A DNA stretch of 24,000 bases from assembly GCA_048938105.1 (NCBI GenBank), contig JBHLMN010000023.1:80079-104078 (forward strand), given 5' to 3'. Positions 6,041 through 21,904 of this stretch are shown in pieces; positions within the stretch are counted from its first letter, which is position 1, and each line of letters starts with the position of its first letter. Both the position numbers and the translations under genes were made by a program. The notes under the pieces are model-generated. The model was not told where the DNA came from. It worked only from the letters and a program-made list of their open reading frames with translations, and ran no database searches. Source of the DNA: Promethearchaeota archaeon (lineage in GTDB: Archaea; Asgardarchaeota; Heimdallarchaeia; Hodarchaeales; Hodarchaeaceae).

Positions 6041-6628
6041 TCAAGCTCTGGCTATTTGAGACTCTTTAGTTCCATAAAGCTGAATCATAAGGATTTCACG
6101 AGCTAATGATTGAAATGCACGTTTGACTCCGAGACCCGTGGTCGCAACGGTCTCATAGATGGGATAATCTTGGATTTTCAACTTGCTTACCAGCTCTGAT
6201 CTAGGTAAAGCATCCTGTACATCTCGCTTGTTAAGAGTAATCACAAGAGGGATGGTTTTTCCTAGTTGATCACCTAAACGCATTTTCAACTCATTGAAAG
6301 ATTCCACGTTCTCTTGAAATTGGGAAGCACTAGAATCGACAACAAAAATAAGACCATCTACTCCTCGTATCACTATCTTACGTTGGTGTTTGTGACGTTC
6401 TTGACCTGCAGTTGTATATACATCAAAAACAACACCTGTAGTTGCTTGCATTGGGACGAAATCGAAAAATAAGGTACGACCCGTGGGATCGGCTAATTGA
6501 GTAAATTTCCCTTTTTCAAGTCCATCCACTTTTTTATACAACCAAGCTAATGTTGTTGTTTTCCCACCCAGAGATGGGCCATAGAATACAACTTTGAATC
6601 GATGACGACCTTCTGCATCCTTTCTCAA
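6041..6628 (-). CDS. MglA-family Ras-like small GTPase
   Basis: It aligns block by block with Myxococcus MglA as I remember it: FYGPSLGGKTTTL (P-loop), RTLFFDFVPM (vs RTLFFDFLPL), YTTAGQERHKHQRKIVIRGVDGLIFVVDS (vs [29 protein letters not shown]), NKRD (G4) and ATTGLGVKRAFQSLAREIL. Confidence 0.88.
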   Translation of the reverse strand: MRKDAEGRHRFKVVFYGPSLGGKTTTLAWLYKKVDGLEKGKFTQLADPTGRTLFFDFVPMQATTGVVFDVYTTAGQERHKHQRKIVIRGVDGLIFVVDSSASQFQENVESFNELKMRLGDQLGKTIPLVITLNKRDVQDALPRSELVSKLKIQDYPIYETVATTGLGVKRAFQSLAREILMIQLYGTKESQIARA

Positions 6629-6674
6629 GAAATAAGTCTCCTCTGAAGGTTAGGAGTCGTGATTCAGAAATCTT

Positions 6675-7181
6675 TTAGAATTTTTCAAGTTCACGTAATG
6701 CTGCTTCTAGTTCATCTTTCTCAAGGCTTGTACGAATCTCAGGAGTCGCAGAAGCCACCCCTCCAACTGGTCGTGTGGGTTTTCCAGCTAGAAATTCGTC
6801 CAAAATATTACTGAGTTCTTCATTGGCTTTTCTCATGAGTAGACGGATCATTCCAATATTGACATCAGCATCAGATATGATTGTCAAAATTCCACGCCCG
6901 CAGGCACTTGCGAAGATCTTACCAGTATCAAACTCTGAAGTAACAATATCTAGGCCACCAATAGTTAGATTCAGGCCCTGTTCTGCAGATGCCATAAACA
7001 CAGCTGAAGCAATAGCCCCAATACCATCTACATCAACACTTACATAGCTGAATTTAGAGACGTGGGCAATTGTAAGACCAGTTCGATCAACAAGAATCAC
7101 TTTTTTTATGCCTGGTTCGCTTTTTATGATCTTACTAAGTACAGTGTCAAATCTTCTGGGATCTATCATGGTTATTACCAA
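6675..7181 (-). CDS. Roadblock/LC7 domain protein, MglB-like partner of the downstream GTPase
   Basis: 168 aa. The Roadblock pattern is GIKKVILVDRTGLTIAHVS...DGIGAIASAVFMASAEQGLNLTIGGLDIVTSEFDTGKIFASACGRGILTIISD. It lies 46 nt upstream of the MglA-like gene on the same strand. The track start is a TTG at 7181; an alternative ATG is at 7169. Confidence 0.75.
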   Translation of the reverse strand: MVITMIDPRRFDTVLSKIIKSEPGIKKVILVDRTGLTIAHVSKFSYVSVDVDGIGAIASAVFMASAEQGLNLTIGGLDIVTSEFDTGKIFASACGRGILTIISDADVNIGMIRLLMRKANEELSNILDEFLAGKPTRPVGGVASATPEIRTSLEKDELEAALRELEKF

Positions 7182-8954: not shown

Positions 8955-9590
8955 TTGGATTATAGGAGCCTATATGAATTATGGCTAGAAGAAAGAGCTA
9001 GTTCAACTCTTCTAAAGATACCTGCAGATTTTTATATTTCCATGGATGGGAAATTGGCTAAATTATATAGAAAACCACAAAATCTAGAATGGGAAGAGAT
9101 AGTAGATGAAATTATAGGAAGAATGGAGTTTCTCCGTAAAGATCTCGTTCAACTAAGATTAACAAAAATACTAAATTCAATAGTTTATAATGTACCAATC
9201 GATTTGGAAAACCGGTGTACTTGGGGAGAACGCCGTTTAATTAAAGATTTAAGAAACGCTATTGAAACGCTTGGCATGGAGAAACCAAACATTTTAGATA
9301 CTCAGGATAATCTTCCAATCACGAATCTCCAGGAAGATTCGGACGTAGAGTCTAATCAAATTGAGGAGAATAGCGATGCTATTCCCACTTCCCAAGTTAA
9401 TTTGATAATTAGGATTCTTGACGATGTCGAAGCCTTTATTGGTCTGGATAACAAGCGATATGGCCCCTTAACAAGGCATGATATTGTACGTTTGCCCTTA
9501 GAGAACGCTAAAGCTCTAATTGCCCGAGGAATGGCAAGAATAATAGAAATAGACGAAAAAAAAAAGGTAATTTTAGGTGAAAAAATGTGA
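8955..9590 (+). CDS. GINS subunit, Gins51 (Gins15)-like
   Basis: The N-terminal A-domain pattern is LYELWLEERASSTLLKIPADFY. The C-terminal B-domain pattern is IRILDDVEAFIGLDNKRYGPLTRHDIVRLPLENAKALIARGMARIIE. The TTG start is preceded by the strong SD-like GAGGAGATCA with 5-nt spacing. Confidence 0.6.
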   Translation: MDYRSLYELWLEERASSTLLKIPADFYISMDGKLAKLYRKPQNLEWEEIVDEIIGRMEFLRKDLVQLRLTKILNSIVYNVPIDLENRCTWGERRLIKDLRNAIETLGMEKPNILDTQDNLPITNLQEDSDVESNQIEENSDAIPTSQVNLIIRILDDVEAFIGLDNKRYGPLTRHDIVRLPLENAKALIARGMARIIEIDEKKKVILGEKM

Positions 9591-9775
9591 GAAGACGCTA
9601 TATTCCTCAACCTCGTTCACACTTTCTAAAAGTGACTTGTGAATGCGGGAATGTTCAAGAGATTTTTTCTCATGCCACAACCGTTATTGTTTGCCGCGTT
9701 TGTGGGAAAACTCTTGCAGAACCTAGTGGAGGAATTACAAAATTGTATGGGGAAGTTATTGAGGTTTTAGACTAA
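9587..9775 (+). CDS. rps27e: Ribosomal protein eS27 (S27e)
   Basis: 62 aa with a C4 zinc ribbon: FLKVTCECGNVQEIFSHATTVIVCRVCGKTLAEPSGG. Its GTG start overlaps the GINS stop (ATGTGA). Confidence 0.9.
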   Translation: MRRRYIPQPRSHFLKVTCECGNVQEIFSHATTVIVCRVCGKTLAEPSGGITKLYGEVIEVLD

Positions 9776-11790: not shown

Positions 11791-12792
11791 ATGGTGGTTG
11801 AATACGTGAAAGAGTACTTTTTAAAGGCTAGTAATGCCTTGACACGTCTAAATAATAGTGTCTCAACTAATGCTCGAAGTGTTGCAGATATTACATTGAA
11901 GATCTATACAAAATTTGAGGAGATTCGATACACAAGTGAAGCCATTCCTGATTTCATTCTTCATCCTAATCAAACCAAATCCAACCTCAAATCGAGTGGT
12001 GAAATACGGGTTGCCCAATTGCTTGCTTCTATTCTTTGTGAGCGAATTACAGATCAATCAATGCGATTAGCTGAGGATCTTGATTTTAGAGAAGAGGATT
12101 TGGATGTTCGAGAAGAAATCCGTGTGATTCACGAACATGTTACCCGATTGAGTGAAGTTATCCAAGTTCAAAAGAAATTAGCTGATGGTGCACCTGTTTC
12201 AACTGAAAGCATTAAAGACTTGCAGAAAAAATACGATACTCGCATTAAACAGCTAGAACAAGAGCTTTTGCGTAAAGAAGGTCGTGCTTTAACTGTAACT
12301 GCTCTAGATGCCACAAAAAAGCCGAAACTGTTTGGAAAGGGAAGATTTGAAAAAACACTAGATGATCTAATTCTTGAATATGGGAAAAATCTTCGTGCTA
12401 GTTCTGGTGGTTATATTTCGCTCGCAAATCTTTATACAGCTTTAAAGACTCAAGTTCCTGATGTCGAATTTTCTACAAAAGATCTTGAGAAATCCTGTAA
12501 ACGTCTCAAAAAACAATCTCTCATTGAAGGAATCGTAAAACGATCAGGGGTCAAGATAGTAGAATTTGTTCCAGTCACTCTTGGGAGTGATGCGAGGAAA
12601 GTTTTTGATTTAGCAGTTAATAAAGGATATGTCACACTCGAAGAGGTAATAATGGGTACCAAATGGGATCAACAACGTGTTGTTAGAGTTCTTGAAAGTC
12701 TTGTTAACCAAAAAATTGCTCGAAAAGTTTCCTCTCTTGATACAGGAGATCAATATTATTTTCCTGGATTATATGGGGACAATAGTTGGTAG
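11791..12792 (+). CDS. ESCRT-II Vps22/SNF8 (EAP30)-like protein: helical N-terminal half plus tandem winged helices
   Basis: The C-terminal ~140 aa align colinearly with human SNF8/EAP30 as I remember it. GGYISLANLYTAL matches GGLITLEELHQQV. FSTKDLEKSCKRLKK matches VSQDDLIRAIKKLKA. VNKGYVTLEEVIMGTKWDQQRVVRVLESLVNQKIARKVSSLDTGDQYYFPGLY matches EKNGYVTVSEIKASLKWETERARQVLEHLLKEGLAWLDLQAPGEAHYWLPALF. Confidence 0.8.
   Translation: MVVEYVKEYFLKASNALTRLNNSVSTNARSVADITLKIYTKFEEIRYTSEAIPDFILHPNQTKSNLKSSGEIRVAQLLASILCERITDQSMRLAEDLDFREEDLDVREEIRVIHEHVTRLSEVIQVQKKLADGAPVSTESIKDLQKKYDTRIKQLEQELLRKEGRALTVTALDATKKPKLFGKGRFEKTLDDLILEYGKNLRASSGGYISLANLYTALKTQVPDVEFSTKDLEKSCKRLKKQSLIEGIVKRSGVKIVEFVPVTLGSDARKVFDLAVNKGYVTLEEVIMGTKWDQQRVVRVLESLVNQKIARKVSSLDTGDQYYFPGLYGDNSW
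12073..12114 (+). repeat. In-frame 21-bp tandem duplication inside the Vps22-like gene (EDLDFRE / EDLDVRE)
   Basis: gaggatcttgattttagagaa is followed directly by gaggatttggatgttcgagaa, with 17/21 identical positions. Confidence 0.7.
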
Positions 12793-12802
12793 GTGAAATC
12801 TT

Positions 12803-13693
12803 ATGGCAGAAGTAGAGAAATTTGGTGGATTATTTCGTAGAATAGGCGATGCTGTACATATTGGAACGAAAAAATTTAAAGGAAAGTCAATTTTGAATTC
12901 AGATTTTGGTCCAGAAGCAGAAAGTTCATTGATTTGTAGGTTAAAATCCGAAGATTTTGATGGTTTTCGGAAGTACGATGGATTCATTGTTAAAGACCCA
13001 GAAAATGCGATTTTATTACAATCTGGATCTTTAGTAGGGGTCGCTGGCAGTGGTATTTACGAGCTGGATAAAAGTGCTAAACGACCTGGAAGTGAAATTA
13101 TCTGGGTAACAAAGCGGGAATTCATTATCAAATGGGGAACACCTGGGATTTATACCTCTGATAATATAATGGTTGGTTGTTATGGTATTTCTCGTATGAG
13201 GGTTGTCAACCCCCGTAATTTTATTATGAATGTTGTTTCACATAAACAGTACTATTCTGGTAATGAATTAAAGAATTGGGTCAAGCAGACAATTATAGCT
13301 GCCGTAAAACATGTTTTATCTCGATATTCTGTACCAGAGATGCTCAAGGAGCGTAGAAGTTTAGAAATCCAAACACGTTCAGAACTTGGACCTGAAACTT
13401 CTCGTTGGGGATTAGAGTTAGTTGGACTGGATATTGGGGGCTTCAAAGTACCTGATGAATATCAAGCCTTGTTATCATATGAAATCGAAAAACAGGTTTT
13501 GAAGCAACGCAGGGAGTTAGCAGAAGAAAGAAAAATGTTTGATGATTTAACGGAAAAAGTAAAGAAATATGAACATATGCTTGAACAAGCTGATGAAATG
13601 TTTCTCAGTGGTAAAATCTCAGAGAAAAAGTATAAGGAACTTACAGATAAATATTCTAAAAAATTAGCTCAATTTAAAGCTCAAATTTCATGA
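12803..13693 (+). CDS. SPFH/Band-7 superfamily protein of the YdjI / PF13421 (Band_7_1)-like type with a C-terminal coiled coil
   Basis: It has an N-terminal GGLF motif, then the pattern IVKDPENAILLQSGSLVGVAGSGIYEL...IIWVTKREFIIKWGTPGIYTSDN...GCYGISRMRVVNPRNFI...WGLELVGLDIGGFKVPDEYQ, which I recognise from COG4260/PF13421 proteins. The last ~70 aa are heptad-rich (KQRRELAEERKMFDDLTEKVKKYEHMLEQ). It starts 10 nt after the Vps22-like stop. Confidence 0.7.
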   Translation: MAEVEKFGGLFRRIGDAVHIGTKKFKGKSILNSDFGPEAESSLICRLKSEDFDGFRKYDGFIVKDPENAILLQSGSLVGVAGSGIYELDKSAKRPGSEIIWVTKREFIIKWGTPGIYTSDNIMVGCYGISRMRVVNPRNFIMNVVSHKQYYSGNELKNWVKQTIIAAVKHVLSRYSVPEMLKERRSLEIQTRSELGPETSRWGLELVGLDIGGFKVPDEYQALLSYEIEKQVLKQRRELAEERKMFDDLTEKVKKYEHMLEQADEMFLSGKISEKKYKELTDKYSKKLAQFKAQIS

Positions 13694-15454
13694 TAATTTA
13701 TTTTCCTGCAAACTTCCTCCACATTCTGGGCATAAAATCATTTCTACTGTACTCATTTCTTTGTAGCAATCCAGGCATACTTTTAAGCTACAAGATGTGC
13801 AGAAATAGTTAATAGAATCAGTTTTTGGAAGTTCACATACACCACAAAGAAATTTTTCTTCGTGTTTTTTCAATTGTAAGGTCATTTCTCGAATGTTGAT
13901 CTTCCCTTGAATTACACCACGTAAGATATAGTTTTCTAATAATACGATTGTATCGCTATCAGATCGGTTTGATAAATCTATTATTTGTTTGAGTGGAATT
14001 TCAGCTTTAGACGACTTTTCTAGAAATTCAGAGAGACTTGGATCTAATTCAGATGATTTAAGTGAAATTGGTTCGTGTTCTATCCATCCGATTTTTAAAG
14101 GACCCTTTTTGCAGAAATGACACTCCTCAGTGCTAACTAAATTATAGGAATGAGTGTAATTAACTCTACAATATGGGCAATATCTGGGAAGATCGATAAT
14201 AAATGCAGAAATATTTCTACAAAACGGACATTCATGTTTACTTCCAGTAGAACGGCAATTTGAGCACATAATTCGTCTACAATTTTGACATTCAAAATAA
14301 AGATCCGGATCAGTATATGAAGATGTGTCTATTTGGCAAAAAATTTCAAAATGGTCTACACCTTTAACTAAAAAGGGATCAGAGGTTTCTCCCGAGATAA
14401 GTCGTAATCCAAGGAGTTTCGCTAGCTTAAAAATCCGATCTAAAAGTTTTAATGGGTCTAGATTCAATGATGATGCTAAATGTTCAACAGCAATTCCATT
14501 TTCGAACCACTCGTTTAAAGAAGGAGCAATGAAATCTTCTGTAGTTAAAGTCCCCTTTAAACTTTGATTTAAAATATTTAACAGTTTAAAAAAATCAGAC
14601 CTGTCTACATCGAGACGTTGAATCCAGAAATCAATAGGAATATTACGATAAACGAATATATCTTTTAAGATTTGGTTTATAATGTCCATAATTGGATAGA
14701 GGTAATTGTAATTAGCAGAAAAAATATAGCTGATTTGGTCACGATTTGCCTCCAAAAATTCTAGACATTTCTCTTCAGAGAGTTGTGTTAATTTACTAAT
14801 ATGGCTAATAGAGACTTCAGATTCCAAGAGAAAACTTGTATCGATAAAACGAATGACATATTCGATATTTTTTCGAATATCTGAGGGAGATGAGAAGTTT
14901 AAAGAAGTGAAATTATATATTCGTTGTTTTATTGGATCAATGTAACCAATGAAATGACTATCCTGAGCAAGAAGCTCCAGAACACCTTCCAAATGTTCTT
15001 CAGCCCAGTAAAGCTGGTTCAATAGGTATTTCAATCCTATTGCCGTGGTAGTGTTTAACCTTTGTCTGATTTCTGCTTTGGCTCCAGGTAAGGTATAGAA
15101 ATTTCGGTTTATTATATCAAAGAATCCCTCAAAACTTTGAGCTCCTATTTTAATTTGTTGTTCTAGTAATTCTCCTGGTAAGTTTGTAGTGTCAATAAGA
15201 TTACATATGTCTATAAAGCCTTTTGTTGCCAATTCACGGGATATTAATTGGTGAAGGAAGTTAATAGGGATGAATTTTTCATCATCAAAACTAACAAAGC
15301 CATTCAGCTCATTTGAGCCAATTTTTGTGCGTAAAAATGCAGCAATAACGCTTGGATTTTCCTTCGGAGCCATTTCACGGAATTTAAGAGGAGTATTTGC
15401 CATTTGAGCCTTTGTTAACCATTGATGTCTCTTTCTCCCAAACATTGGTATCAC
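13688..15454 (-). CDS. Uncharacterised 588-aa protein: repeated winged-helix-like modules, a central cluster of five CxxC dyads and a C-terminal C4C4 RING-like finger (candidate E3/scaffold)
   Basis: A long, clean ORF. The central module (res 389-448) reads C-x2-C-x4-C-x2-C-x8-C-x2-C-x13-C-x2-C-x15-C-x2-C. The C-terminal module (res 537-578) reads C-x2-C-x11-C-x2-C-x4-C-x2-C-x11-C-x2-C. Several segments look like WH modules, e.g. FIPINFLHQLISRELATKGFIDICNLIDTTNLPGELLEQQI and IVLLENYILRGVIQGKINIREMTL. The confidence is for the functional call; the CDS itself is about 0.85. Confidence 0.45.
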   Translation of the reverse strand: MIPMFGRKRHQWLTKAQMANTPLKFREMAPKENPSVIAAFLRTKIGSNELNGFVSFDDEKFIPINFLHQLISRELATKGFIDICNLIDTTNLPGELLEQQIKIGAQSFEGFFDIINRNFYTLPGAKAEIRQRLNTTTAIGLKYLLNQLYWAEEHLEGVLELLAQDSHFIGYIDPIKQRIYNFTSLNFSSPSDIRKNIEYVIRFIDTSFLLESEVSISHISKLTQLSEEKCLEFLEANRDQISYIFSANYNYLYPIMDIINQILKDIFVYRNIPIDFWIQRLDVDRSDFFKLLNILNQSLKGTLTTEDFIAPSLNEWFENGIAVEHLASSLNLDPLKLLDRIFKLAKLLGLRLISGETSDPFLVKGVDHFEIFCQIDTSSYTDPDLYFECQNCRRIMCSNCRSTGSKHECPFCRNISAFIIDLPRYCPYCRVNYTHSYNLVSTEECHFCKKGPLKIGWIEHEPISLKSSELDPSLSEFLEKSSKAEIPLKQIIDLSNRSDSDTIVLLENYILRGVIQGKINIREMTLQLKKHEEKFLCGVCELPKTDSINYFCTSCSLKVCLDCYKEMSTVEMILCPECGGSLQENKLS

Positions 15455-15570
15455 CCAAATCTCTTGCTGTACAAATTTCAGGTAAAAAAAGTGAGAAAAA
15501 TTCTTTTTATAAAATCTTTAGTCTTTCATAAAATAAAAGTATAATAAGAAAAACTTGAGGAAATAATACA

Positions 15571-15885
15571 ATGGCTCAACAAAAGATTAAATGTACAAAT
15601 TGTGGTTATATTCCCCGAGATCTCCCTGTTTCTGGGAGCTGGTACTGTCCGAAGTGTGGAAAACGTACAGAAATTCCCCACCACCGCCCACGAGTCGCTA
15701 GAAAATTCTATAAGAAGCCACGAATAACTCAAAAATCTCGAGATCAAGTAACAAGCAGAATCTATGATAAATTAACATATGAAAAAGTTCCCGATCTTGG
15801 GTTCAAAGAACCTTATTTAAAACCAAAAATTCCTCCAATTCTCCCCAAAAGAAGAGATAAAATACGATTATTTTATAAAAAATAA
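15571..15885 (+). CDS. Small basic zinc-ribbon protein, function unknown
   Basis: 104 aa. It has an N-terminal CxxC-x14-CxxC (KCTNCGYIPRDLPVSGSWYCPKCGKR) and a Lys/Arg/Pro-rich, probably disordered tail. It is divergent from the 588-aa gene across a 116-nt spacer. Confidence 0.5.
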   Translation: MAQQKIKCTNCGYIPRDLPVSGSWYCPKCGKRTEIPHHRPRVARKFYKKPRITQKSRDQVTSRIYDKLTYEKVPDLGFKEPYLKPKIPPILPKRRDKIRLFYKK

Positions 15886-15925
15886 TCAAAAGTATTGTTA
15901 ATTGATACAAAAGGTTATTATTTCT

Positions 15926-17155
15926 TTAATTCTGAAATTTAATTTGCAAACGTATTTCTTCATCATCAATCAAAGAACTTAGTGTTATCCGATCACCATC
16001 AGAAAGAAATTTTTGGATGATCCCATTTTCAGGTATCATAAAGTTACCACGAAACCCAACATAATCTTTTTTGTGTTCTTCTCGAATTGTATCAAGAATA
16101 GATCTAAACTTTGATCTACAATCTACTGTTACGATTTGAATGGAATCTACAATGGTATTAGATTGGCCACATACTAGGCAATTTGGATCAGGAACTAGAT
16201 TGAAAGTGTTTATTGTCCCTGTTAGTGCAGAATATATGGTAAACGAAGGAATGCGGAATCTATGAGATTTCAATAAACCTTCAAGCGTTTTACGTTCTCT
16301 TTTTTTCATTCTCTCTTTTTTTTCTAGAAAAAGAGACTTTAGGATCTCTTGAGATTGGATTCCACTGACTACTGCATTAACTGTGATGAGACTGGGTACG
16401 TGGAAAAGGACTAATTGCATGAGTTCTTTTTCATCGAATTTTCCAAAATTATATTTATTAGCAAAATTATTTGCCAATTTCGTAAGTTCCGCAATATCTT
16501 TGGCTGAATTTTCAATAGGTGAGCGTACATGAGTTGTACTAAATTCATAAAGAGCTTTCCAAGCACAATGTTCTCTCTCACGAGGAACTCCCACTAAAGT
16601 ACAAGGAGCTGTTAAAACCCGAGTTTCATCAGGAGGTTGAGGGGTTTCACAAGCCAAACAAGCAGTAACATTTGGTTTTATATACTGAATTTGGCCGAAG
16701 TAGCCATCTGTAGCTGAATCTATTAAAGTTAATTTAAGGTCAACTGCTATTGCATTCAGATATTGTCGTGCCAAAAAGTTATCTACGCAACCAGCAATGA
16801 TGTCAACTTCGTGAAAAATCCTTTGAGGTAGGTTTTGGAGGAGGTTAGAATAACTTTCAATCTCAATATCAGGATTAAATCTTTCTCGAATCCGCTTTCT
16901 TGCTATTTCTGCCTTTTTTTTCCCAACATCTTCTTCTTTAAACAACATTTGACGATTTAAGTTTGAGAATTCTATAGTGTCCACATCAACAAGGATTAAA
17001 CGACCAACGCCTAATAAAGCTAAGTTCTTAGCTACTTCGCTACCTGTCCCTCCAACTCCTGCTATTAAAATCGCGCTATCTTCAATAATATGTTGATCCC
17101 AAAGAGATAAACGTTCTTGTCGGTCATATTTAGAAGAAGGAAGATCTTGTGTCAT
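15926..17155 (-). CDS. Ubiquitin-activating enzyme E1-like (ThiF/MoeB fold, UBA3/UBA2-type)
   Basis: The Rossmann ATP motif is IAGVGGTGSEVAKNL and NLNRQ follows. The crossover-loop zinc dyad plus catalytic-Cys region TACLACETPQPPDETRVLTAPCTLVGVPREREHCAWKA is colinear with UBA3 (TACIEC...P-x-CT...PR-x-PEHCI). A second dyad DPNCLVCG is present, and the C-terminal ~70 aa could be a UFD-like domain. Confidence 0.9.
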   Translation of the reverse strand: MTQDLPSSKYDRQERLSLWDQHIIEDSAILIAGVGGTGSEVAKNLALLGVGRLILVDVDTIEFSNLNRQMLFKEEDVGKKKAEIARKRIRERFNPDIEIESYSNLLQNLPQRIFHEVDIIAGCVDNFLARQYLNAIAVDLKLTLIDSATDGYFGQIQYIKPNVTACLACETPQPPDETRVLTAPCTLVGVPREREHCAWKALYEFSTTHVRSPIENSAKDIAELTKLANNFANKYNFGKFDEKELMQLVLFHVPSLITVNAVVSGIQSQEILKSLFLEKKERMKKRERKTLEGLLKSHRFRIPSFTIYSALTGTINTFNLVPDPNCLVCGQSNTIVDSIQIVTVDCRSKFRSILDTIREEHKKDYVGFRGNFMIPENGIIQKFLSDGDRITLSSLIDDEEIRLQIKFQN

Positions 17156-17204
17156 ATCTTGAAATCTTCCTAATAGAATCCTTTAACATTACAATAAGAG
17201 GGAA

Positions 17205-17525
17205 TCAACCCCCCTTAATCTGATCTGGAACTATCATGAGAATTGCATTTTGTTCGATTCCATAGGAAGAAAGATTGTTTGAAGGATTCATTCTTCTTCC
17301 CTTGAATAATAAAGCGATTGGTACAACTTCTGGGATATTAAATGCATCACGAGCTGCTGTGATAGCTTGAAATACAGTTCCATTAATATTAATGTATTTT
17401 TCACGGATATTTTGATCTGGAGGAAGTTGTGGATCTTTAAAGCGAATTTTTATCATTTTTTCAATACCACTGTCAGGAGCTTTTCCTGTAGAAGTAGAAT
17501 CCCATATTACGTCCTTTTTACTCAT
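17205..17525 (-). CDS. Ubiquitin-like beta-grasp modifier ending in Gly-Gly-stop, with an N-terminal extension of about 23 aa
   Basis: The core MIKIRFK...TVFQAITAARDAFNIPEVVPIALLFKGRRMNPSNNLSSYGIEQNAILMIVPDQIKGG* is colinear with ubiquitin (MQIFVKT...[34 protein letters not shown]). The track start is a GTG at 17534. I prefer the ATG at 17525 because AGGTGA lies 5 nt upstream of it. An internal ATG at 17456 would give an 83-aa ubiquitin-sized product. Confidence 0.85.
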   Translation of the reverse strand: MSKKDVIWDSTSTGKAPDSGIEKMIKIRFKDPQLPPDQNIREKYININGTVFQAITAARDAFNIPEVVPIALLFKGRRMNPSNNLSSYGIEQNAILMIVPDQIKGG

Positions 17526-17546
17526 TTTTTTCACCTTTCTGTCTAC

Positions 17547-18341
17547 TTAAGTATAAAACATACGTTCAATTTCTGAAAGTGTAGTAAGAATATCTATTCG
17601 TCCTTTGGCATAATCCTCTAAAGGTCCTCGAATAAGAGGGTATTTAGTTAGAATATCACTTTCAAGACCTATAGGTAAATTCTTTTTTCTCTTAATGATA
17701 AAATTTATTACTTCACCATTTTGGGCATAAAATCTTACAGTAATCTCTTTTTTTGCTGCTGATGCATCATAGTTTGCAAGAATTTGACGTATGAGAGGAT
17801 CATGTTCTTCTTGAATCGCAGCAGAAGCTTCAGAAGATGCCATAATGGGTTCTCCCATAACCTGGGGGAGTTCTTTTTCAGCCTTCTGATAGATTTCTTC
17901 TAATACGTCCAATACTGAACTTGAGCCAGGGGTCCAGTTTTTCATTACTTTCAAATCGTTGATTTCACAATCTAAGACTTCTCTAAGCTTAGCAGGACCA
18001 TCAATGTAGGGTCGATCAGGCAAATCATCCAACACAAGAAGAAGAGGAAAAGCATATTCCTTTACTTGCATCTTAATCCTTAGTTTACCTACTTCATCAC
18101 CAACAAATTCCCCAGGAAAATTTTCAAGGATTTTCTGTGATTCTTGATAAATAAGAAAGTAATTTTCAGCTTCCTCCTCTGCATCCATCATTTTGGCTTC
18201 TGCTGGTGTAATAGCTGCCCGTTTAAGGTAATTTGTCATGTCACAGTATTCACACTTTACAGGGTGCTGATATGATGGTCTTATTGGAAGGGGGGCCCCA
18301 CAGCCGCTACATTGAGAAATATCAGTTTGAATATCTTCCAT
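17547..18341 (-). CDS. Uncharacterised 264-aa protein: N-terminal zinc ribbon plus a putative degenerate UBC/RWD-like core lacking HPN
   Basis: The zinc ribbon is C11-x2-C14-x15-C30-x2-C33. Res ~55-160 follow the E2 secondary-structure logic: a helix (AENYFLIYQESQKILENFPG), a strand meander (EFVGDEVGKLRIKMQVKEYAFPLLLVL), a DLPDRPYI loop in place of YPFKPP, a single Cys125 and NWTPGSSSVLDVLEEIYQ resembling the E2 W-SP-x-helix. It is the first gene of the Ubl-E1 operon, with a 12-nt gap to the Ubl ORF. The fold assignment is by eye only. Confidence 0.4.
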   Translation of the reverse strand: MEDIQTDISQCSGCGAPLPIRPSYQHPVKCEYCDMTNYLKRAAITPAEAKMMDAEEEAENYFLIYQESQKILENFPGEFVGDEVGKLRIKMQVKEYAFPLLLVLDDLPDRPYIDGPAKLREVLDCEINDLKVMKNWTPGSSSVLDVLEEIYQKAEKELPQVMGEPIMASSEASAAIQEEHDPLIRQILANYDASAAKKEITVRFYAQNGEVINFIIKRKKNLPIGLESDILTKYPLIRGPLEDYAKGRIDILTTLSEIERMFYT

Positions 18342-18400
18342 TTTTTTTGATCACCCATTATGTGAGGAATGTTCGTGCAAGATGAGTCAGTCTTTAGACC

Positions 18401-18414
18401 TTAAAAAGCTAGCT
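18401..18414 (-). promoter_or_regulatory. Candidate promoter element AGCTAGCTTTTTAA (palindrome + TATA-like) upstream of the ZnR-Ubl-E1 operon
   Basis: On the minus strand it reads GAGCTAGCTTTTTAAGG, about 60 nt upstream of the ATG at 18341. The 14-mer is identical to the one at 1130-1143. Confidence 0.3.
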
Positions 18415-18480
18415 CATTCTACACCTTTTCTTCCATTTCCTAGCCACAGCTTTAAATATCGGCAACGGTGCATTATTTAT

Positions 18481-18490
18481 AAGCTAGCTT
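18481..18490. promoter_or_regulatory. 10-bp perfect palindrome AAGCTAGCTT abutting a TATA-like TTTATAA in the divergent Ub-system promoter region
   Basis: The sequence cattaTTTATAAGCTAGCTTtag is the second copy of the AGCTAGCT core, 75 bp from the first, within the 221-bp spacer between the two ubiquitin-system operons. Confidence 0.3.
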
Positions 18491-18562
18491 TAGTGTTAAA
18501 TGAGATTGAATTTTACTTTATCATAGATTAGGTAAGGATAAAAATGGAAGGATGGTAAGATC

Positions 18563-19105
18563 GTGCAGGATTTACATTCTAGACGACTACGAGAAGAGTT
18601 CAAACGGATGCTGAAAACTTATCCCCCAAAAACAAGTCCCATTAAATGGACTATAGTCAATAATGACCTTCATCATTACAAAGCGACTATTAAAGGAAAA
18701 AAAAATACTCCTTATGAGGGAGGGAAATGGAAGATCACTCTTGACTTACCTTCTGAATATCCCTTTAAACCTCCTATTATCAACTTTTTAACCCCTATTT
18801 ATCACCCTAATATCGCAACTGGTAAAACTCAATGGAAGTGGGGCTCCAATGTATGTTTAAGTCTTGTAAATTGGAATAATTTAGGGAAACCTGGTGGTTG
18901 GAAGGAAACGATAACCTTGCCAAGCGTTTTTGAACATATTGAAATGATGCTAGATGTTTTTAAGACAACTGGGGATGTGGATTTTCCAGAATATCTTGTT
19001 GATCCAAATGATCCTTTTAATCCTAAAGCTGGAGAGATTATGAACACAAATTTTGATAAATTCTGGGAAATAGCTGTTAATTGGACCAAAAAGCATGCAA
19101 AGTAA
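18563..19105 (+). CDS. Ubiquitin-conjugating enzyme E2 (UBC fold, HPN + catalytic Cys)
   Basis: The N-terminal helix is RRLREEFKRMLK. Further blocks are TPYEGGKWKITLDLPSEYPFKPPIINFLTPIYHPNI (HPN at res 81-83), catalytic Cys98 in NVCLSL, and the C-terminal DPNDPFNPKAGEIM...FWEIAVNWTKKHA. GTG start. Confidence 0.9.
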   Translation: MQDLHSRRLREEFKRMLKTYPPKTSPIKWTIVNNDLHHYKATIKGKKNTPYEGGKWKITLDLPSEYPFKPPIINFLTPIYHPNIATGKTQWKWGSNVCLSLVNWNNLGKPGGWKETITLPSVFEHIEMMLDVFKTTGDVDFPEYLVDPNDPFNPKAGEIMNTNFDKFWEIAVNWTKKHAK

Positions 19106-19137
19106 ACCTCTTCTAGAATCGGTATTGTGGATGATGA

Positions 19138-19737
19138 ATGTCTAATCATAATAAACAAAAAGATTTGAACTCAGAAAATTCTGAAATAACAGAAGAAAAA
19201 ACTACTGATAAAATACAAGAAAGCTCCTTTAGTAGACAAGTGGAAATCAAAAAGGTAAAAATTTCTTCATCTCCCCAAGTTCAGTCAGTCTCAATCTTAG
19301 GAAATCTACTTGATGAAATAACTGAATATTCGGTAAAATCTATGCCTAGGGAAGCTATTGGTCTGTTAGGTGGAAGAGAACTACGTCCCAAAGAAATAGA
19401 AATATTAAAAATAATTTTTGTGTCAGAAGGTGACGAAATCTCTGTTTCCTTTTCTGATGAAGATTTTGAGGCTTTCGAAAATATTTTAGAAGATGATTGT
19501 TATTGTTGTGGGTGGTGGCATTCTCATCCAGGATATGGCTTATTTCTGTCTCAAACAGATATAAATACTCATATTTTTTCTTTTCAGCTCCATAATGATC
19601 TTTCTGTTGCACTTGTTATTGAACCTACTATAAGAGATATGACTGGCCGTGCCGCTTTTCAATTTTACCAAGTTATAAGCGAAGATAAGAAGGATTCTTT
19701 CGGATACAAGGAAATTGCTAGCTATATACAACATTAA
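19138..19737 (+). CDS. JAMM/MPN+ metalloprotease (Rpn11/AMSH-like deubiquitinase)
   Basis: The JAMM motif is complete: Glu in PREAIGLLGG, then WWHSHPGYGLFLSQTDINTH (H-x-H-x7-S-x2-D). It has a ~45-aa low-complexity N-terminal extension and starts 32 nt after the E2 stop. Confidence 0.88.
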   Translation: MSNHNKQKDLNSENSEITEEKTTDKIQESSFSRQVEIKKVKISSSPQVQSVSILGNLLDEITEYSVKSMPREAIGLLGGRELRPKEIEILKIIFVSEGDEISVSFSDEDFEAFENILEDDCYCCGWWHSHPGYGLFLSQTDINTHIFSFQLHNDLSVALVIEPTIRDMTGRAAFQFYQVISEDKKDSFGYKEIASYIQH

Positions 19738-19925: not shown

Positions 19926-20735
19926 ATGAGTTCGATGAAGTTGAATTGGGGGTTTTTTGAGTTTCATCTCGAATATTTAACTCGTTTTTTCCTTCAAGAT
20001 GGATATGGGATGATAGACTATATTTTGATTTTCCTTGGTCCAGGGACAGTTTTATTCTTTACATTCTACCTTTTATGGGCTGGAAGGCGAAAAAATCGCA
20101 AAATTATGCATTTATCACGTGAAGCTTTACTAGATGTCTTTGCAAACGAATTTGATGATCTAGTTATGGAGCAGATGAGTTCAAACGGGGGTTTATTAAT
20201 TCCCAAGTACAAGAAATCTTATGATATACCTTTCCAAGATTTTCGTGTAGTATTTGCCCTAGAAGAAAGGCATCTCATGTTATCAGTCATCATCTCATGG
20301 TTTTCAGGAGTAAATGATTATATTGCACTAGAGGCAAACTCGAAAAAGGGAGAAGTACGTACTCAAATTCCTACCAAGATTCAAATTATACCTAAACATG
20401 AAGAAGGTCAAATAAGAAAACATCAGGATCTCCTGTTTAAACTGGAAGATATTGAACTTGGAGTAAAAAGATTTGATGATGTTTTTTTGGTGAAAGCGAC
20501 CACCCAACGGACAGGAACATACTTTCTAGGTGATAAAAACCTTCTGAAACTAATTCACAATGTTAGAAAAGTAATTGTTAGAATTTCAGTTGATTCTGCT
20601 GACGACCCATCTCTTCGTATTTATGCACGAATTAACAAAGATTTGAATCTTGAGAGGTTACACGCCCTTTTCATTGCATTTTGTGATCGGATTAATGAGG
20701 TTTCTGAAAAAGTGGTCATGAAGAAAAAACGATAG
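19926..20735 (+). CDS. Hypothetical membrane-anchored protein (one N-terminal TM helix plus a ~210-aa soluble domain)
   Basis: A hydrophobic helix MIDYILIFLGPGTVLFFTFYLLWAG is followed by the positive cluster RRKNRK. The remainder is hydrophilic with no motif I recognise. Confidence 0.55.
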   Translation: MSSMKLNWGFFEFHLEYLTRFFLQDGYGMIDYILIFLGPGTVLFFTFYLLWAGRRKNRKIMHLSREALLDVFANEFDDLVMEQMSSNGGLLIPKYKKSYDIPFQDFRVVFALEERHLMLSVIISWFSGVNDYIALEANSKKGEVRTQIPTKIQIIPKHEEGQIRKHQDLLFKLEDIELGVKRFDDVFLVKATTQRTGTYFLGDKNLLKLIHNVRKVIVRISVDSADDPSLRIYARINKDLNLERLHALFIAFCDRINEVSEKVVMKKKR

Positions 20736-20779: not shown

Positions 20780-21343
20780 TTATAAAAGATCGATTTTTTC
20801 AGTCACTCTTTGACGGAGCCATTCAAGTCCTTCCTCGACGTTAAAACCAGTTTTAGCTGAAGTGGGAACGATAGCATATGAATGTGTCGTGACTTTGTGA
20901 AGGTTAAGCCCTCGCGCAACCTCTCCAGCTGAAGCAGCATTTTCTAGATCTTGCTTGTTGGCAAGTACTAAAATTGGTATGTTTTCTACCTTATCATTGT
21001 CAAGGACATATTTCCATAACTCCATCCTAGCTTCAGTGAGTCTGGGCCTATCAGCTGAATCTACTACATATACGATTCCCATACTACCTGACATGTAGCT
21101 TTCCCAAAGAGATTCACGAAAAGCTTCTTGTCCCCCAATATCCCAAGAAATAAATCGTACATTCCCAGAACTGAATTCATCAACATTCATCCCCAGTGTT
21201 CGGAAAGTACTACTGTTAAATTCTCCAGAAGTAATTCGTTTGACTAATGTGGTTTTTCCAGCCTGGTCAAGACCTAACCACGCAATTTTCACAGTTAACT
21301 TTTCTTTGGCAAATTTAGCACGGAGCTTTGAAAGGAAACTCAT
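20780..21343 (-). CDS. Arf/Arl-family small GTPase (Arl8-like by eye)
   Basis: G1 is GLDQAGKTTL. The interswitch/G3 signature is WDIGGQ, G4 is NKQD and G5 is SAKTG, followed by EGLEWL. The N-terminal segment MSFLSKLRAKFAKEK looks amphipathic. The stretch SGEFNSSTFRTLGMNV...VRFISWDIGGQEAFRESLWESY...IVYVVDSAD resembles Arl8. Confidence 0.88.
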   Translation of the reverse strand: MSFLSKLRAKFAKEKLTVKIAWLGLDQAGKTTLVKRITSGEFNSSTFRTLGMNVDEFSSGNVRFISWDIGGQEAFRESLWESYMSGSMGIVYVVDSADRPRLTEARMELWKYVLDNDKVENIPILVLANKQDLENAASAGEVARGLNLHKVTTHSYAIVPTSAKTGFNVEEGLEWLRQRVTEKIDLL

Positions 21344-21352
21344 TTAGGGCAC

Positions 21353-21904
21353 CTATCTGCTTTTCTGTGACATTCTACGTTGAAACCTGTCGCTCATCCA
21401 CTGCCAAGGTTCCTCAACCCCTTCACCTGTTAAGGCTGAGCATGGGTAGACTGCGAATGTTCTTGGTCTTGCAGCCATCTCCTTCTCGAGCTCTAACGTG
21501 TGGATAATTCTTTCCAATGTCATTGCTTCTCTTAAATCTTGTTTATTTGCCAAGAAAAGGAATGCAGAGTCTTCTGGCGCCCATTGAATGACATTTTTCA
21601 ACCATTTTCCTGCATTTTCAACTTTAGATCTGTCTGCAGAATCAAATACAAACACAATACCTGATGCATCTGAAACAAATGGTTTCCATAGGCTAGTAGG
21701 AAATGTGGCTTGACCACCCAGATCTGCTGCCATTACTTCAATATTGCCAATTTTTAAAGTTTCAATATTCATCCCCATTGTTGGAACGGTCTCTAAATCA
21801 TCATCTCCCTTAAGTCTTTTTACTAATGTAGTTTTCCCCGCATTTGCAAGACCAACAAATGCTATCTGATTTTCTATTTCTCGACCAAACAATTTTGTCG
21901 GCAT
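21353..21904 (-). CDS. Divergent Arf-like small GTPase (paralogue of the downstream gene)
   Basis: G1 is GLANAGKTTLVKRL. G3 is DLGGQ, with AAD replacing the WD of Arf. G4 is NKQD and G5 is SALTGEGV. It lies 9 nt upstream of the other Arf-like gene on the same strand. Confidence 0.8.
   Translation of the reverse strand: MPTKLFGREIENQIAFVGLANAGKTTLVKRLKGDDDLETVPTMGMNIETLKIGNIEVMAADLGGQATFPTSLWKPFVSDASGIVFVFDSADRSKVENAGKWLKNVIQWAPEDSAFLFLANKQDLREAMTLERIIHTLELEKEMAARPRTFAVYPCSALTGEGVEEPWQWMSDRFQRRMSQKSR

Follow-up and report, generated by a model that had tools for sequence, protein, structure and literature searches.

A candidate ubiquitin ligase with a UFL1-like scaffold and two RING-type fingers encoded beside ESCRT-II-like and SPFH genes in a Hodarchaeales archaeon

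Results

Nine consecutive open reading frames, which occupy 7,947 nt of a 24,000-nt stretch of a Hodarchaeales archaeon contig (the window), appear to specify a self-contained ubiquitin-type conjugation system with a dedicated 588-aa ligase and adaptors, whose likeliest partners or targets would be a Vps22-like and an SPFH protein; we put the probability of this reading at about 60%. The open reading frames, strands and spacings given in the preliminary description were all recovered (Table 1), and since every one of the nine genes is conserved at the protein level in 22 or more other genomes, all nine are real. The EAP30 (Vps22-like) gene is followed after 10 nt by the SPFH gene on the same strand, which converges with the 588-aa gene so that their 3' ends overlap by 6 nt, an overlap that is conserved. 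The 588-aa and 104-aa genes diverge from a 116-nt spacer, probably a bidirectional promoter region as predicted from its sequence. The genes of the 264-aa protein (u264), Ubl and E1 are co-directional with gaps of 12 and 49 nt, u264 lying directly upstream of Ubl and E1, while E2 and JAMM, separated by 32 nt, are divergent from u264. The NCBI annotation of the 588-aa frame starts at M4 (585 aa), and for the EAP30 and Ubl genes, too, the deposited start differs from that of the longest ORF. A 269-aa membrane protein gene, co-directional after E2-JAMM, is syntenic in Hodarchaeales and L029 only and is absent from loci L023 and L026-28. No transmembrane helix was predicted in any of the nine cluster proteins. 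Homologues of Vps25, ESCRT-III and Vps4, which had been described as missing, were indeed found neither in the window nor within 10 kb of any related locus.

Table 1. Features of the cluster, in positions of the 24,000-nt window.
Feature	Position	Strand	Basis
Vps22-like ESCRT-II gene, 333 aa	11791..12792	+	Pfam EAP30
SPFH/Band-7 gene, 296 aa	12803..13693	+	Pfam Band_7, Band_7_1
588-aa candidate E3 (annotated 585 aa)	13688..15454	-	AF2, Foldseek and family profile: UFL1
588-aa protein, aa 1-366, UFL1-like winged-helix scaffold	14357..15454	-	AF2 secondary structure, UFL1 alignments
588-aa protein, aa 373-448, RING-A and ribbon	14111..14338	-	Invariant Cys, hhalign
588-aa protein, aa 537-578, RING-B	13721..13846	-	Eight invariant Cys, PDB profile matches
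AT-rich divergent spacer between 588-aa and 104-aa genes	15455..15570	.	TATA-like runs, read from sequence
104-aa zinc ribbon	15571..15885	+	Invariant C8/C11/C26/C29
Single-chain E1, 409 aa	15926..17155	-	ThiF, UBA1 matches
Ubl, ubiquitin-type modifier	17205..17534	-	Pfam ubiquitin and Rad60-SLD
264-aa accessory protein (u264)	17547..18341	-	AF2 and Foldseek: RWD/UEV/E2-like folds
Divergent spacer between u264-Ubl-E1 and E2-JAMM units	18342..18562	.	TATA-like runs, read from sequence
Canonical E2, 180 aa	18563..19105	+	UQ_con, UBE2D, HPN81/Cys98
JAMM/MPN+ isopeptidase, 199 aa	19138..19737	+	JAB, Prok-JAB, intact motif
Possible peripheral member, 269-aa single-pass membrane protein	19926..20735	+	TM helix aa 29-53

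The 588-aa protein consists of a winged-helix array, a RING-A/zinc ribbon segment, a PCI-like winged helix and a C4C4 RING-B, in that order. Its AF2 model had an overall pLDDT of 84.7, and residues 1-366 form about six tandem winged-helix units (pLDDT >90). The top Foldseek matches were UFL1 (1.5e-10), with alignments spanning 360-370 columns, and the family profile likewise matched UFL1 in PDB at 8e-7. Pfam E3_UFM1_ligase was found in 13 of 25 family members and PCI in 22 of 25 (best 1e-6); the window protein itself fell below the E3_UFM1_ligase threshold. In RING-A the first ligand pair is degenerate (C-Q-x-D) and a CxxC...CxxC ribbon comes after the finger; this segment is the best conserved of the family, its Cys being invariant in the divergent alignment, while AF2 confidence in this region is low (58-80). 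Its profile aligned to that of RING-B with 95.4% probability (hhalign, E 1.9e-8), and the RING-A of the L026 orthologue matched Prok-RING_4 at 27.5 bits (cutoff 27). RING-B carries eight invariant Cys spaced C-x2-C-x11-C-x2-C-x4-C-x2-C-x11-C-x2-C; the profile of its module matched the RINGs of CesA (2e-6), TRIM32 (5e-6) and NOT4 (2e-5), followed by BRE1, RING1B and others in PDB, and Pfam zf-RING_4 and zf-UDP each matched 24 of 30 members. The RING assignment draws on ligand spacing and on matches with E-values between 1e-6 and 1e-4; the 588-aa protein is likely to be the E3 of the cascade. We also considered an RBR ligase identity, which was rejected. The family is narrow, with 14 proteins below 1e-30 among 1.84e9.

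The remaining conjugation genes were readily assigned. E1 matched ThiF at 1.7e-55 (188 bits, Pfam) and, in PDB, UBA1 (8e-40), UBA2 (7e-32), UBA3 (1e-29) and UBA5 (2e-19), and it has GxGxxG at residue 33 and CxxC at 166 and 326. The Ubl has an N-terminal extension of ~25 aa and ends in IKGG-stop; all 16 members of its family matched Pfam ubiquitin and Rad60-SLD and none matched Ufm1, its PDB profile matches were ubiquitins, and hhalign gave 69% for ubiquitin vs 8% for UFM1. Some Ubl orthologues carry residues after GG. E2 (UQ_con 7e-24, 84.5 bits; UBE2D 8e-20) contains an HPN81 motif and a single Cys98, and JAMM (JAB 7.6e-9, 35.8 bits; Prok-JAB 1.1e-7) an intact H128-S-H-x7-S-x2-D motif. At the sequence level E1, E2, Ubl and JAMM were thus established as ubiquitin-type, forming a predicted complete conjugation set with intact motifs.

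Two accessory proteins contain zinc ribbons. The 104-aa protein joins its ribbon to a basic, proline-rich tail (22 K+R vs 6 D+E), and the four Cys (C8/C11/C26/C29) and, at the C-terminus, the motif P-K-(K/R)-R-x-K-I-R-L-F are both retained down to 34% identity. The 264-aa protein, which had no match in Pfam or NCBIfam, combines an N-terminal CxxC...CxxC ribbon with two RWD/UEV/E2-like alpha/beta modules (AF2, pLDDT 77.5); its KRKK and EDYxKGR motifs are invariant and C125 nearly so. Foldseek gave FANCL as its best match (8e-4), then BRE (0.02) and many E2s with probability >0.9, which bears out at the fold level the 'UBC-like' label it had been given. The proteins initially regarded as unknown thus have ubiquitin-pathway folds, and no housekeeping family was assigned to them.

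The Vps22-like protein has EAP30 tandem winged helices at its C-terminus (aa ~138-330; Pfam EAP30 7.5e-10, 39.3 bits vs cutoff 26.8) and an N-terminal helical/coiled-coil extension of ~170 aa, its best PDB matches being human SNF8/Vps22 (3e-12) and yeast Vps22. Asgard Vps22 has been described as fused to an N-terminal steadiness box (Makarova et al., PMC11188069). A sequence relationship between its winged helices and those of the 588-aa protein was looked for and none was detected. The SPFH protein (Band_7 8.9e-16, 58.9 bits; Band_7_1, PF13421, 5.4e-12) has a C-terminal coiled coil, weak stomatin and flotillin matches in PDB, and is the best-conserved protein of the cluster (78-94% identity).

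Orthologues of the nine genes were syntenic rather than scattered, their order being identical in 22 Hodarchaeales genomes. This synteny alone is uninformative, because the entire 22 kb is collinear in Hodarchaeales loci, including ThrRS, eIF2alpha, Gins51 and the A-ATPase B subunit. Three more distant lineages, however, keep a 588-like gene (~26% identity) with EAP30-SPFH or ubiquitin genes. In L023, EAP30, SPFH, 588-like and zinc-ribbon genes are co-directional in that order, with a 13-nt overlap and gaps of 12-30 nt; u264, Ubl and E1 follow one another about 6 kb away with housekeeping genes between, and the housekeeping block is still adjacent. In L026 the 588-like gene adjoins Ubl, JAB and E2, and E1 lies at a distance of 4 kb; in L027/28 the order is E2<-JAB, Ubl, 588-like. 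L026-28 no longer have the housekeeping neighbours. EAP30-SPFH was not seen beside the 588-like gene in these last loci, where the contigs end on one side. The linkage of the 588-aa gene to ubiquitin genes and to EAP30-SPFH is thus supported as surviving rearrangement in distant lineages. The ubiquitin linkage is specific to the 588 family, since a short UFL1-like protein of Heimdallarchaeaceae lies in a gene context without ubiquitin genes.

Discussion

We propose that E2~Ubl would be recruited by RING-B and possibly also by RING-A, degenerate as it is, while the winged-helix train, by analogy with eukaryotic UFL1, may act as a long scaffold by which the ligase is positioned on a large substrate or partner. 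The Vps22-like and SPFH proteins would be its likeliest partners or targets, because their genes form one tight unit that, in one distant lineage, shares an operon with the 588-like gene; SPFH may supply an oligomeric, membrane-apposed platform and the Vps22-like protein an ESCRT-II-type winged-helix adaptor. For the 264-aa protein, non-covalent binding to the modifier or to E2 is most likely, in the manner of a receptor or of a substrate adaptor such as the FANCL RWD or the ESCRT-I UEV; the 104-aa zinc ribbon would dock through its conserved basic C-terminus, and JAMM would trim those Ubl orthologues with residues after GG and reverse conjugation. Lu et al. (2023, bioRxiv 10.1101/2023.07.25.550441) showed in vitro activity for an Asgard E1/E2/RING cascade. 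The preliminary interpretation is supported in part; the membrane role of the suggested membrane-sorting module is one that we infer by analogy only, because the cluster has no transmembrane helix and no linked ESCRT-III, Vps4 or Vps25. A fusion of DDRGK, UFL1, PCI and Vps28 (P0246; E3_UFM1_ligase 4e-14) gives independent precedent for a link between UFL1-like proteins and ESCRT, as do Liu et al.

It is unlikely, though to be taken seriously, that two or three independent modules (Vps22-SPFH; 588-aa protein and zinc ribbon; ubiquitin cascade) are held together by clade collinearity, with Vps22-SPFH functionally unrelated. Such a reading fits the identical order of the 22 kb, housekeeping genes included, in all Hodarchaeales loci, the absence from view of EAP30/SPFH near the 588-like gene in L026-28, and the splitting of the ubiquitin triplet from the EAP30 operon in L023, where inherited collinearity may also explain the EAP30-SPFH-588 link. 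Against it, the 588-like gene has been re-oriented in L023 into a tight, overlapping operon with EAP30-SPFH, it lies directly beside Ubl/JAB/E2 in L026-28 with the housekeeping genes gone, and the SPFH/588 3' overlap is conserved. That the 588-aa protein is instead a PCI-type winged-helix scaffold for JAMM, a primitive lid/COP9-signalosome-like PCI-MPN pair and not a ligase, we regard as improbable: the PCI Pfam matches, Foldseek matches to CSN and proteasome-lid PCI subunits (E 0.02-0.1) and the adjoining JAB in L026-28 agree with it, but the UFL1 matches are 7-8 orders of magnitude stronger than those to CSN and the lid, in the AF2 model no helical solenoid precedes the PCI-like winged helix on its N-terminal side, and the fingers match RING E3s along their full length. 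In a scaffold of this kind the zinc fingers would have a structural role or bind substrate; one protein could be both scaffold and ligase.

An archaeal UFMylation system, with the Ubl as Ufm1 orthologue, a UBA5-like E1 and the 264-aa protein as UFC1-like E2 serving a UFL1 orthologue, is hardly credible. The UFL1-like scaffold, Ufm1 homologues reported from Asgard clades and a full-length single-sequence alignment of the Ubl to mouse Ufm1 (E 1.1) speak for it; we rejected it as the Ubl profiles favour ubiquitin, E1 is some 20 orders of magnitude nearer UBA1/2/3 than UBA5, the locus has a canonical HPN E2 and UFC1 was not among the Foldseek matches of u264. A Bil/CBASS-like Ubl-E1-E2-JAB defence against viruses was rejected as extremely improbable: the PADLOC matches (E1-E2 1e-18, JAB 1e-7) reflect generic domain homology and are far weaker than those to eukaryotic UBA1, E2, Ubl and the other five proteins had none, and the locus, unlike defence islands, has a fixed chromosomal place among housekeeping genes in every genome.

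The conjugation system with its proposed ligase shares Ubl, E1, E2, E3 and JAMM/MPN beside an ESCRT subunit with known Asgard ubiquitin-ESCRT clusters (Hatano et al. 2022, PMC9192718; Lu et al. 2023; Makarova et al. 2024, PMC11188069), but it has no linked Vps25, ESCRT-III, Vps4, Vps23 or Vps28, its Vps22-like gene is paired with SPFH where vps23/vps28 is the usual pairing (Makarova et al., PMC11188069), and its modifier is a divergent paralogue-like Ubl. The hodarchaeial cluster in which UEV-Vps23 occurs with ubiquitin genes is another locus, with Yip1 and a Rab-like GTPase. The 588-aa protein had been placed outside the described core; it in fact carries RING fingers and is one of the UFL1-like winged-helix proteins, a group already entered in Asgard surveys as 'UFM1-protein ligase 1 (E3)' and used there as the E3 marker. 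Eukaryotic UFL1, which acts with DDRGK1, shares the N-terminal tandem winged-helix array and is its best structural and profile match, but identity is only 13-14%, and UFL1 lacks a RING and works with UFM1/UBA5/UFC1, whereas the 588-aa protein has two RING-type fingers and ubiquitin-type E1, E2 and Ubl. As closer Asgard relatives of UFL1 such as P0246 exist, the 588 family is a paralogous branch; for UFL1 itself, Picchianti et al. proposed that it originated in Asgard archaea and that its ancestral role was independent of UFM1.

RING-B shares with CNOT4/CesA-type C4C4 RINGs, its best full-length profile matches, the eight-Cys cross-brace spacing, in which four residues separate ligands 4 and 5, but it forms a cassette with the preceding PCI-like winged helix, and its E2 binding is predicted. 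FANCL, with its E2-like fold, double RWD and RING, is the best fold match of the tandem modules of u264, so that u264 and the 588-aa RING resemble a split FANCL with RING and RWD on separate polypeptides, u264 having an extra N-terminal zinc ribbon. The archaeal ubiquitin operon of the Caldiarchaeum subterraneum type consists of Ub, E1, E2, a small RING and Rpn11, likewise uniting a minimal but complete E1/E2/RING/JAMM set at a single locus; its RING is a small free-standing protein, while the present one is built into a 588-aa UFL1-like scaffold and accompanied by extra adaptors. The SPFH gene, which had also been considered outside the described core, has published counterparts in other archaea, where coiled-coil SPFH genes lie beside ESCRT-related genes in methanogen 'Meth_adaptin' ESCRT loci, and in bacteria, where YdjI recruits PspA (Makarova et al. 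2024, PMC11188069). The published partners are ESCRT-III, Vps4 or adaptin-like, whereas here they are an ESCRT-II Vps22-like protein and a candidate ubiquitin ligase in an Asgard lineage. Ubiquitin-ESCRT synteny, 'UFM1-ligase-like E3' annotations and SPFH-ESCRT links are thus already published; the double-RING architecture and the Vps22-SPFH pairing were not found in the searchable literature text. What the locus adds is a probable ligase that joins a UFL1 scaffold to two RING fingers, encoded beside ESCRT-II-like and SPFH genes.

Results

Gene layout and domain assignment

Positions and strands of the nine ORFs agreed with those of the preliminary description, as did the 10-nt gap between the EAP30 (Vps22-like) and SPFH genes, the two divergent junctions and the 6-nt overlap of the convergent SPFH and 588-aa genes; the deposited annotation gives the 588-aa ORF as 585 aa. 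By exact sequence the window belongs to a 104-kb contig of a MAG deposited at NCBI as 'Promethearchaeota archaeon', and Hodarchaeales/Heimdallarchaeia MAGs are closest to it. Pfam searches confirmed EAP30, Band_7, ThiF, ubiquitin/Rad60-SLD, UQ_con and JAB domains above or near the curated thresholds, and essentially no Pfam assignment was obtained for the 588-, 104- and 264-aa products. No transmembrane helix was found in any of the nine cluster proteins, and neither Rfam nor a tRNA scan gave a match in the window. The SPFH, 588-, 104- and 264-aa proteins, which had been presented as four unknowns, are each now placed at the fold level.

A UFL1-like scaffold with two RING-type fingers

The 588-aa family is narrow: 64 word-indexed homologues were found, all of about 583 aa and every one from Hodarchaeales-like MAGs, and only 14 of 1.84 billion cluster representatives scored under 1e-30. 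The AlphaFold model of the protein, built with 25 homologues, is confident (pLDDT 84.7, pTM 0.71). About six tandem winged helices (aa 1-366) are followed in it by a zinc-rich segment modelled with low confidence, then by the seventh winged helix (aa 472-528) and a C-terminal zinc finger. When this model was compared with the PDB using Foldseek, UFL1 was the top match (8ohd_A, 1.5e-10 over 367 columns), with further UFL1 matches to 8qfc_B, 9gy4_E and the UFL1-DDRGK1 chimera 8b9x (5e-8); the next unrelated match was a generic SelB winged-helix array (9e-5), and ESCRT-II, CSN and proteasome-lid proteins appeared at about 1e-2. UFL1 chains were likewise the sole significant PDB matches of the family sequence profile (8e-7 to 5e-6). 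The Pfam family E3_UFM1_ligase (PF09743) matched 13 of 25 family members weakly, at best with 3e-6, and did not match the window protein at E<=1. What the 588-aa protein and UFL1 have in common is the tandem winged-helix scaffold. Homology of its winged helices to those of the neighbouring Vps22-like protein was considered and rejected (probability 0.2%).

UFL1 is a scaffold-type E3 which lacks a RING, whereas the 588-aa protein carries two RING-type fingers, RING-A in its centre and RING-B at its C-terminus. RING-B has eight invariant cysteines (C537/540/552/555/560/563/575/578) with the spacing of C4C4 RINGs, C-x2-C-x11-C-x2-C-x4-C-x2-C-x11-C-x2-C. A profile of the RING-B module made from 30 diverse copies aligned over its full length with CesA/IRX3 (2e-6), TRIM32 (5e-6) and NOT4 (2e-5) and, more weakly, with TRIM37, RNF24, BRE1, RING1B, MAT1 and others, whereas FYVE and PHD fingers aligned only partially; Pfam zf-RING_4 and zf-UDP each matched 24 of the 30 copies. 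RING-A is a degenerate copy of the RING-B finger (hhalign probability 95.4%, E 1.9e-8) and is followed by a CxxC...CxxC ribbon; one orthologue matched Prok-RING_4 here at threshold. In the divergent alignment no part of the protein is more conserved than this central zinc segment of RING-A and ribbon. An RBR ligase was rejected in view of the order RING-A, ribbon, winged helix, RING-B and of IBR matches at E 0.03-0.9. Since a UFL1-type scaffold is here combined with two RING-type fingers, the 588-aa protein is by its predicted architecture the obvious candidate for the E3 ligase of the cluster.

The module of PCI-like winged helix and C4C4 RING seen in the 588-aa protein turned up again at the C-terminal end of about 70 proteins, 85-1073 aa long and otherwise unrelated (P0199-P0275); it has the strict core 'C.DCY..M..VG...CP.CGG.L' and looks like an undescribed RING subfamily.

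The modifier and its enzymes

The E1 matched ThiF in Pfam with 1.7e-55, and among adenylation domains in the PDB it was closest to UBA1 (8e-40), UBA2 (7e-32) and UBA3 (1e-29), UBA5 being far weaker (2e-19). The E2 matched UQ_con (84.5 bits) and UBE2D (8e-20), retains HPN81 and has Cys98 as its sole cysteine, and the H-S-H-x7-S-x2-D motif of the JAMM protein is intact. The Ubl ends in ...IKGG-stop; some orthologues carry 1-3 residues beyond the GG, which implies processing. Some Ubl orthologues are annotated without the N-terminal extension (83 aa). Ubiquitin and Rad60-SLD matched all 16 members of the Ubl family in Pfam and Ufm1 none (0/16), the family profile recovered ubiquitins only from the PDB, and hhalign, run against two comparison sequences, gave 69% (E 4e-5) for ubiquitin and 8% (E 4e-3) for UFM1. 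Judged from sequence, the locus has every catalytic motif needed to activate a modifier ending in GG, to conjugate it and to remove it again, and motifs and profiles assign the E1/E2/Ubl set to a ubiquitin-type conjugation cascade.

Since the 588-aa protein was found to be UFL1-like, the cascade was tested as a UFM1 system, an idea first prompted by the UFL1 matches and by a likeness of the Ubl to UFM1 seen by eye. The absence of Ufm1 matches in Pfam, the PDB profile, hhalign, an E1 nearer to UBA1/2/3 and a UBE2D-like E2 led us to reject it, and we regard it as highly improbable. UFL1 works with UFM1, UBA5 and UFC1, whereas the Ubl, E1 and E2 encoded beside the 588-aa gene are of ubiquitin type. 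A defence function, as in Bil/CBASS-like anti-phage systems, would draw on the PADLOC matches, but these amounted to generic E1 and JAB homology and nothing more specific; this reading was rejected too and appears extremely unlikely. That the 588-aa protein is a PCI-MPN scaffold, as in the proteasome lid or CSN, would suit the PCI winged-helix matches in 22 of 25 family members and the JAMM gene nearby; its model contains no helical solenoid and its structural matches to PCI-MPN proteins are weak. We consider this distinctly improbable, and it would be compatible with the reading that we prefer, a self-contained ubiquitin-type cascade with its own ligase and adaptors.

Accessory proteins

The 264-aa family was found in Hodarchaeales-like genomes only and has an invariant N-terminal zinc ribbon and equally invariant KRKK and EDYxKGR motifs. 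Its model (pLDDT 77.5) matched FANCL (8e-4), BRE and many genuine E2s (probability >=0.9) in Foldseek, FANCL itself combining an E2-like fold with a double RWD. The model thus predicts a zinc ribbon with tandem RWD/UEV/E2-like folds, and the earlier label 'UBC-like' is borne out at the fold level. HPN is missing, and C125, near the position of the E2 cysteine, is at least 90% conserved and is absent from P0159, the most distant member. In the 104-aa protein (ZnR104) the four ribbon cysteines and a C-terminal P-K-(K/R)-R-x-K-I-R-L-F, in a strongly basic tail, are kept down to 34% identity. A ribosomal or RNA-binding zinc-ribbon protein was rejected for ZnR104, the NCBIfam match being sub-threshold (16.9 bits against a cutoff of 61).

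The SPFH protein matched Band_7 (58.9 bits) and Band_7_1 (46.2 bits) and showed weak similarity to stomatin and flotillin. A search for a membrane anchor found no hydrophobic segment at KD19>=1.6, and the protein may bind membranes peripherally. The EAP30 protein scored 39.3 bits against a cutoff of 26.8, with SNF8/Vps22 nearest (3e-12) and no match to Vps36. Its aa 1-137 had no Pfam match, and the added N-terminal stretch of 170 residues would fit a putative steadiness box, a fusion which the text of Makarova et al. 2024 (PMC11188069) describes for Asgard Vps22. No Vps25, ESCRT-III or Vps4 gene was found in the window or within 10 kb at about 30 related loci.

Gene order in near and distant relatives

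A synteny scan with one genome per species gave 22 loci, and all nine genes were found in the same order and orientation in each of them that was long enough. The entire 22 kb was equally collinear in every sampled Hodarchaeales genome (L001-L022), with protein identities down to about 45%. ThrRS, two Arf GTPases and a membrane protein precede the nine genes on one side of this block; on the other lie an acetyltransferase, eIF2alpha, Gins51, a prepilin peptidase, the Roadblock-GTPase pair, the TPR protein and the A-ATPase B subunit. The gene order of this region is unusually rigid, housekeeping genes included. Neighbourhood conservation, to which the preliminary description had looked for support of a functional module, therefore held as far as the order of the nine genes in Hodarchaeales is concerned, but since the whole 22 kb is collinear it is uninformative there and cannot tell a functional tie from common inheritance. 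The two can be told apart in more distant relatives.

At the distant locus L023, where the 588-like protein has 26% identity, EAP30, SPFH, 588-like and ZnR104-like genes all point the same way, with one overlap of 13 nt and gaps of 12-30 nt; a u264-Ubl-E1 block, u264 being the 264-aa gene, lies about 6 kb off, and no E2 or JAMM gene was visible. At L026 a Ubl orthologue is convergent with the 588-like gene, JAB and E2 follow and E1 lies 4 kb beyond, while L027 and L028 have the order E2, JAB, Ubl and 588-like gene with its divergent paralogue, whose product matched the C-terminal RING profile very weakly. The housekeeping genes are missing from the L026, L027 and L028 contexts. These arrangements put the 588-like gene at the hub: linkage to ubiquitin genes is what it shows most generally, and linkage to Vps22-SPFH was seen in Hodarchaeales, in the related locus L029 and in L023. 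No ubiquitin or ESCRT context was found for a short Heimdallarchaeaceae protein that is UFL1-like, which argues that the linkage is specific to the 588 family. Locus L025 (P0202) and the contig of P0246, being truncated or too short, were left out of the comparison of contexts. A metagenome scan for divergent arrangements gave seven loci, all within the Hodarchaeales identity range and with no new arrangement. That the cluster consists of modules juxtaposed through inherited collinearity fits the rigid 22 kb and is, with these distant loci in view, an unlikely explanation.

Other genes in the window

Several further features were recorded (see table). The Roadblock/LC7 and Arf/Ras-like genes, 84-96% and 78-95% identical across Hodarchaeales, resemble the 'LAMTOR1-like Roadblock + Rab-like GTPase (+DENN)' operon, predicted for most Asgard archaea in the text of Liu et al. 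The tandem Arf GTPases are among the most conserved genes of the window (88-98% and 72-96% identity across loci). The 269-aa protein is the sole membrane-anchored product near the cluster; its gene is syntenic in Hodarchaeales and L029 and missing from L023 and L026-28. TPR proteins with faint RPN7 matches were also seen at L027 and L028, about 6 kb from the 588-like genes. The 62-aa ORF is probably the easily missed gene of ribosomal protein S27e.

Features of the window and of related loci (positions without a locus name refer to the window)
Feature	Position	Strand	Remarks
416-aa TPR protein	3897-5147	+	RPN7-like (proteasome lid) match, 4e-8
Roadblock/LC7 (MAPKK1_Int-like) 168-aa gene, then Arf/Ras-like 195-aa GTPase	6041-7181	-	
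62-aa ORF between Gins51 and eIF2alpha	9587-9775	+	S27e position in L023 and L029
Ubl N-terminal extension, ~25 residues	17457-17534	-	Ubl aa 1-26 ('KKDVIWD...'); conserved, precedes beta-grasp
269-aa single-pass membrane protein	19926-20735	+	TM aa 29-53; co-directional after E2-JAMM
Tandem pair of Arf-family GTPases (187 and 183 aa)	20780-21904	-	Arf 2.8e-47 (first); between cluster and ThrRS
588-like gene duplicated head to head	L027:1653-5242; L028:1642-5231		618-aa and divergent 548-aa (P0204) copies beside Ubl-JAB-E2
787-aa fusion protein P0246	L039:870-3233		DDRGK, E3_UFM1_ligase, PCI and VPS28 domains

Discussion

The neighbourhood is a real, conserved and coherent ubiquitin-pathway locus, and it is a variation on the known Asgard ubiquitin-ESCRT theme and no new kind of system. 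Of the known archaea, Hodarchaeales rank among those most closely related to eukaryotes, and the main interest lies in a candidate RING ligase that is UFL1-like and in how it is coupled to Vps22-like and SPFH proteins in archaea near eukaryotes. IPR018611 is what we take to be the InterPro entry for UFL1, 'E3 UFM1-protein ligase 1'. The same entry was the E3 marker in the text of Hatano et al. 2022 (PMC9192718), which established Asgard ubiquitin-ESCRT synteny, and Asgard surveys name 'UFM1-protein ligase 1 (E3)' as the ubiquitin-system E3. An Asgard E1-E2-RING cascade has been reconstituted according to the text of Lu et al. 2023 (bioRxiv 10.1101/2023.07.25.550441), whose Hodarchaeial UEV-Vps23 and ubiquitin cluster includes Yip1 and a Rab-like GTPase and, as described there, is a different locus from ours. 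E3_UFM1_ligase domains fused to Vps28/Vps23 are noted in the text of Liu et al.; P0246 is a fusion of this type, and it physically joins both halves of the UFL1 complex to ESCRT-I. As to SPFH-ESCRT links, the text of Makarova et al. 2024 (PMC11188069) gives contextual ones in methanogens and the bacterial YdjI-PspA case, and has vps22-like genes normally co-directed with vps23/vps28. The UFL1-like/double-RING architecture, the Vps22-SPFH pairing in Hodarchaeia and the 264- and 104-aa families were not found described in the literature text searched.

We propose that the 588-aa protein would recruit E2~Ubl through RING-B and perhaps RING-A, with its winged-helix train acting as a scaffold as in UFL1, and that the Vps22-like and SPFH proteins, at a platform apposed to the membrane, would serve as its partners or be its targets. 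The 264-aa protein could bind Ubl or E2 non-covalently or act as an adaptor for substrates, ZnR104 may dock through its basic C-terminus, and the JAMM protein would process the modifier and reverse conjugation. A membrane role of the cluster is suggested by analogy only.

Picchianti et al. place the origin of UFL1 and DDRGK1 in Asgard archaea, perhaps with a UFM1-independent function, and explicitly raise the question of UFL1 origin and its role before UFM1. A speculative answer, which we hold to be quite unlikely as a whole, is that the 588 family keeps that older role: a RING ubiquitin ligase, working through its winged-helix train with an ESCRT-II-like protein and an SPFH cage, would carry out ubiquitin-dependent quality control of membranes, or of membrane-docked ribosomes or translocons, independently of ESCRT-III/Vps4, and the UFL1 of eukaryotes would descend, without the RING, from ESCRT-linked ligases of this kind.

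Since the Ubl ends in ...K-G-G, its sequence predicts that trypsin should leave behind the usual di-Gly remnant. Looking for substrates by di-Gly proteomics is therefore feasible in isolated Hodarchaeales strains, and isolation of such strains has been reported (bioRxiv 10.1101/2025.02.26.640444). The 264-aa protein, ZnR104 and the SPFH protein offer three compact uncharacterised adaptors for biochemistry. The association of ESCRT with SPFH proteins, described for methanogens and bacteria, would now reach the Asgard lineage as well, and to the question of what UFL1 did before UFM1 the locus offers an answer that is concrete and can be tested: a scaffold of the UFL1 type fused to RINGs, a ubiquitin-type cascade and genetic coupling to ESCRT-II-like and SPFH proteins.
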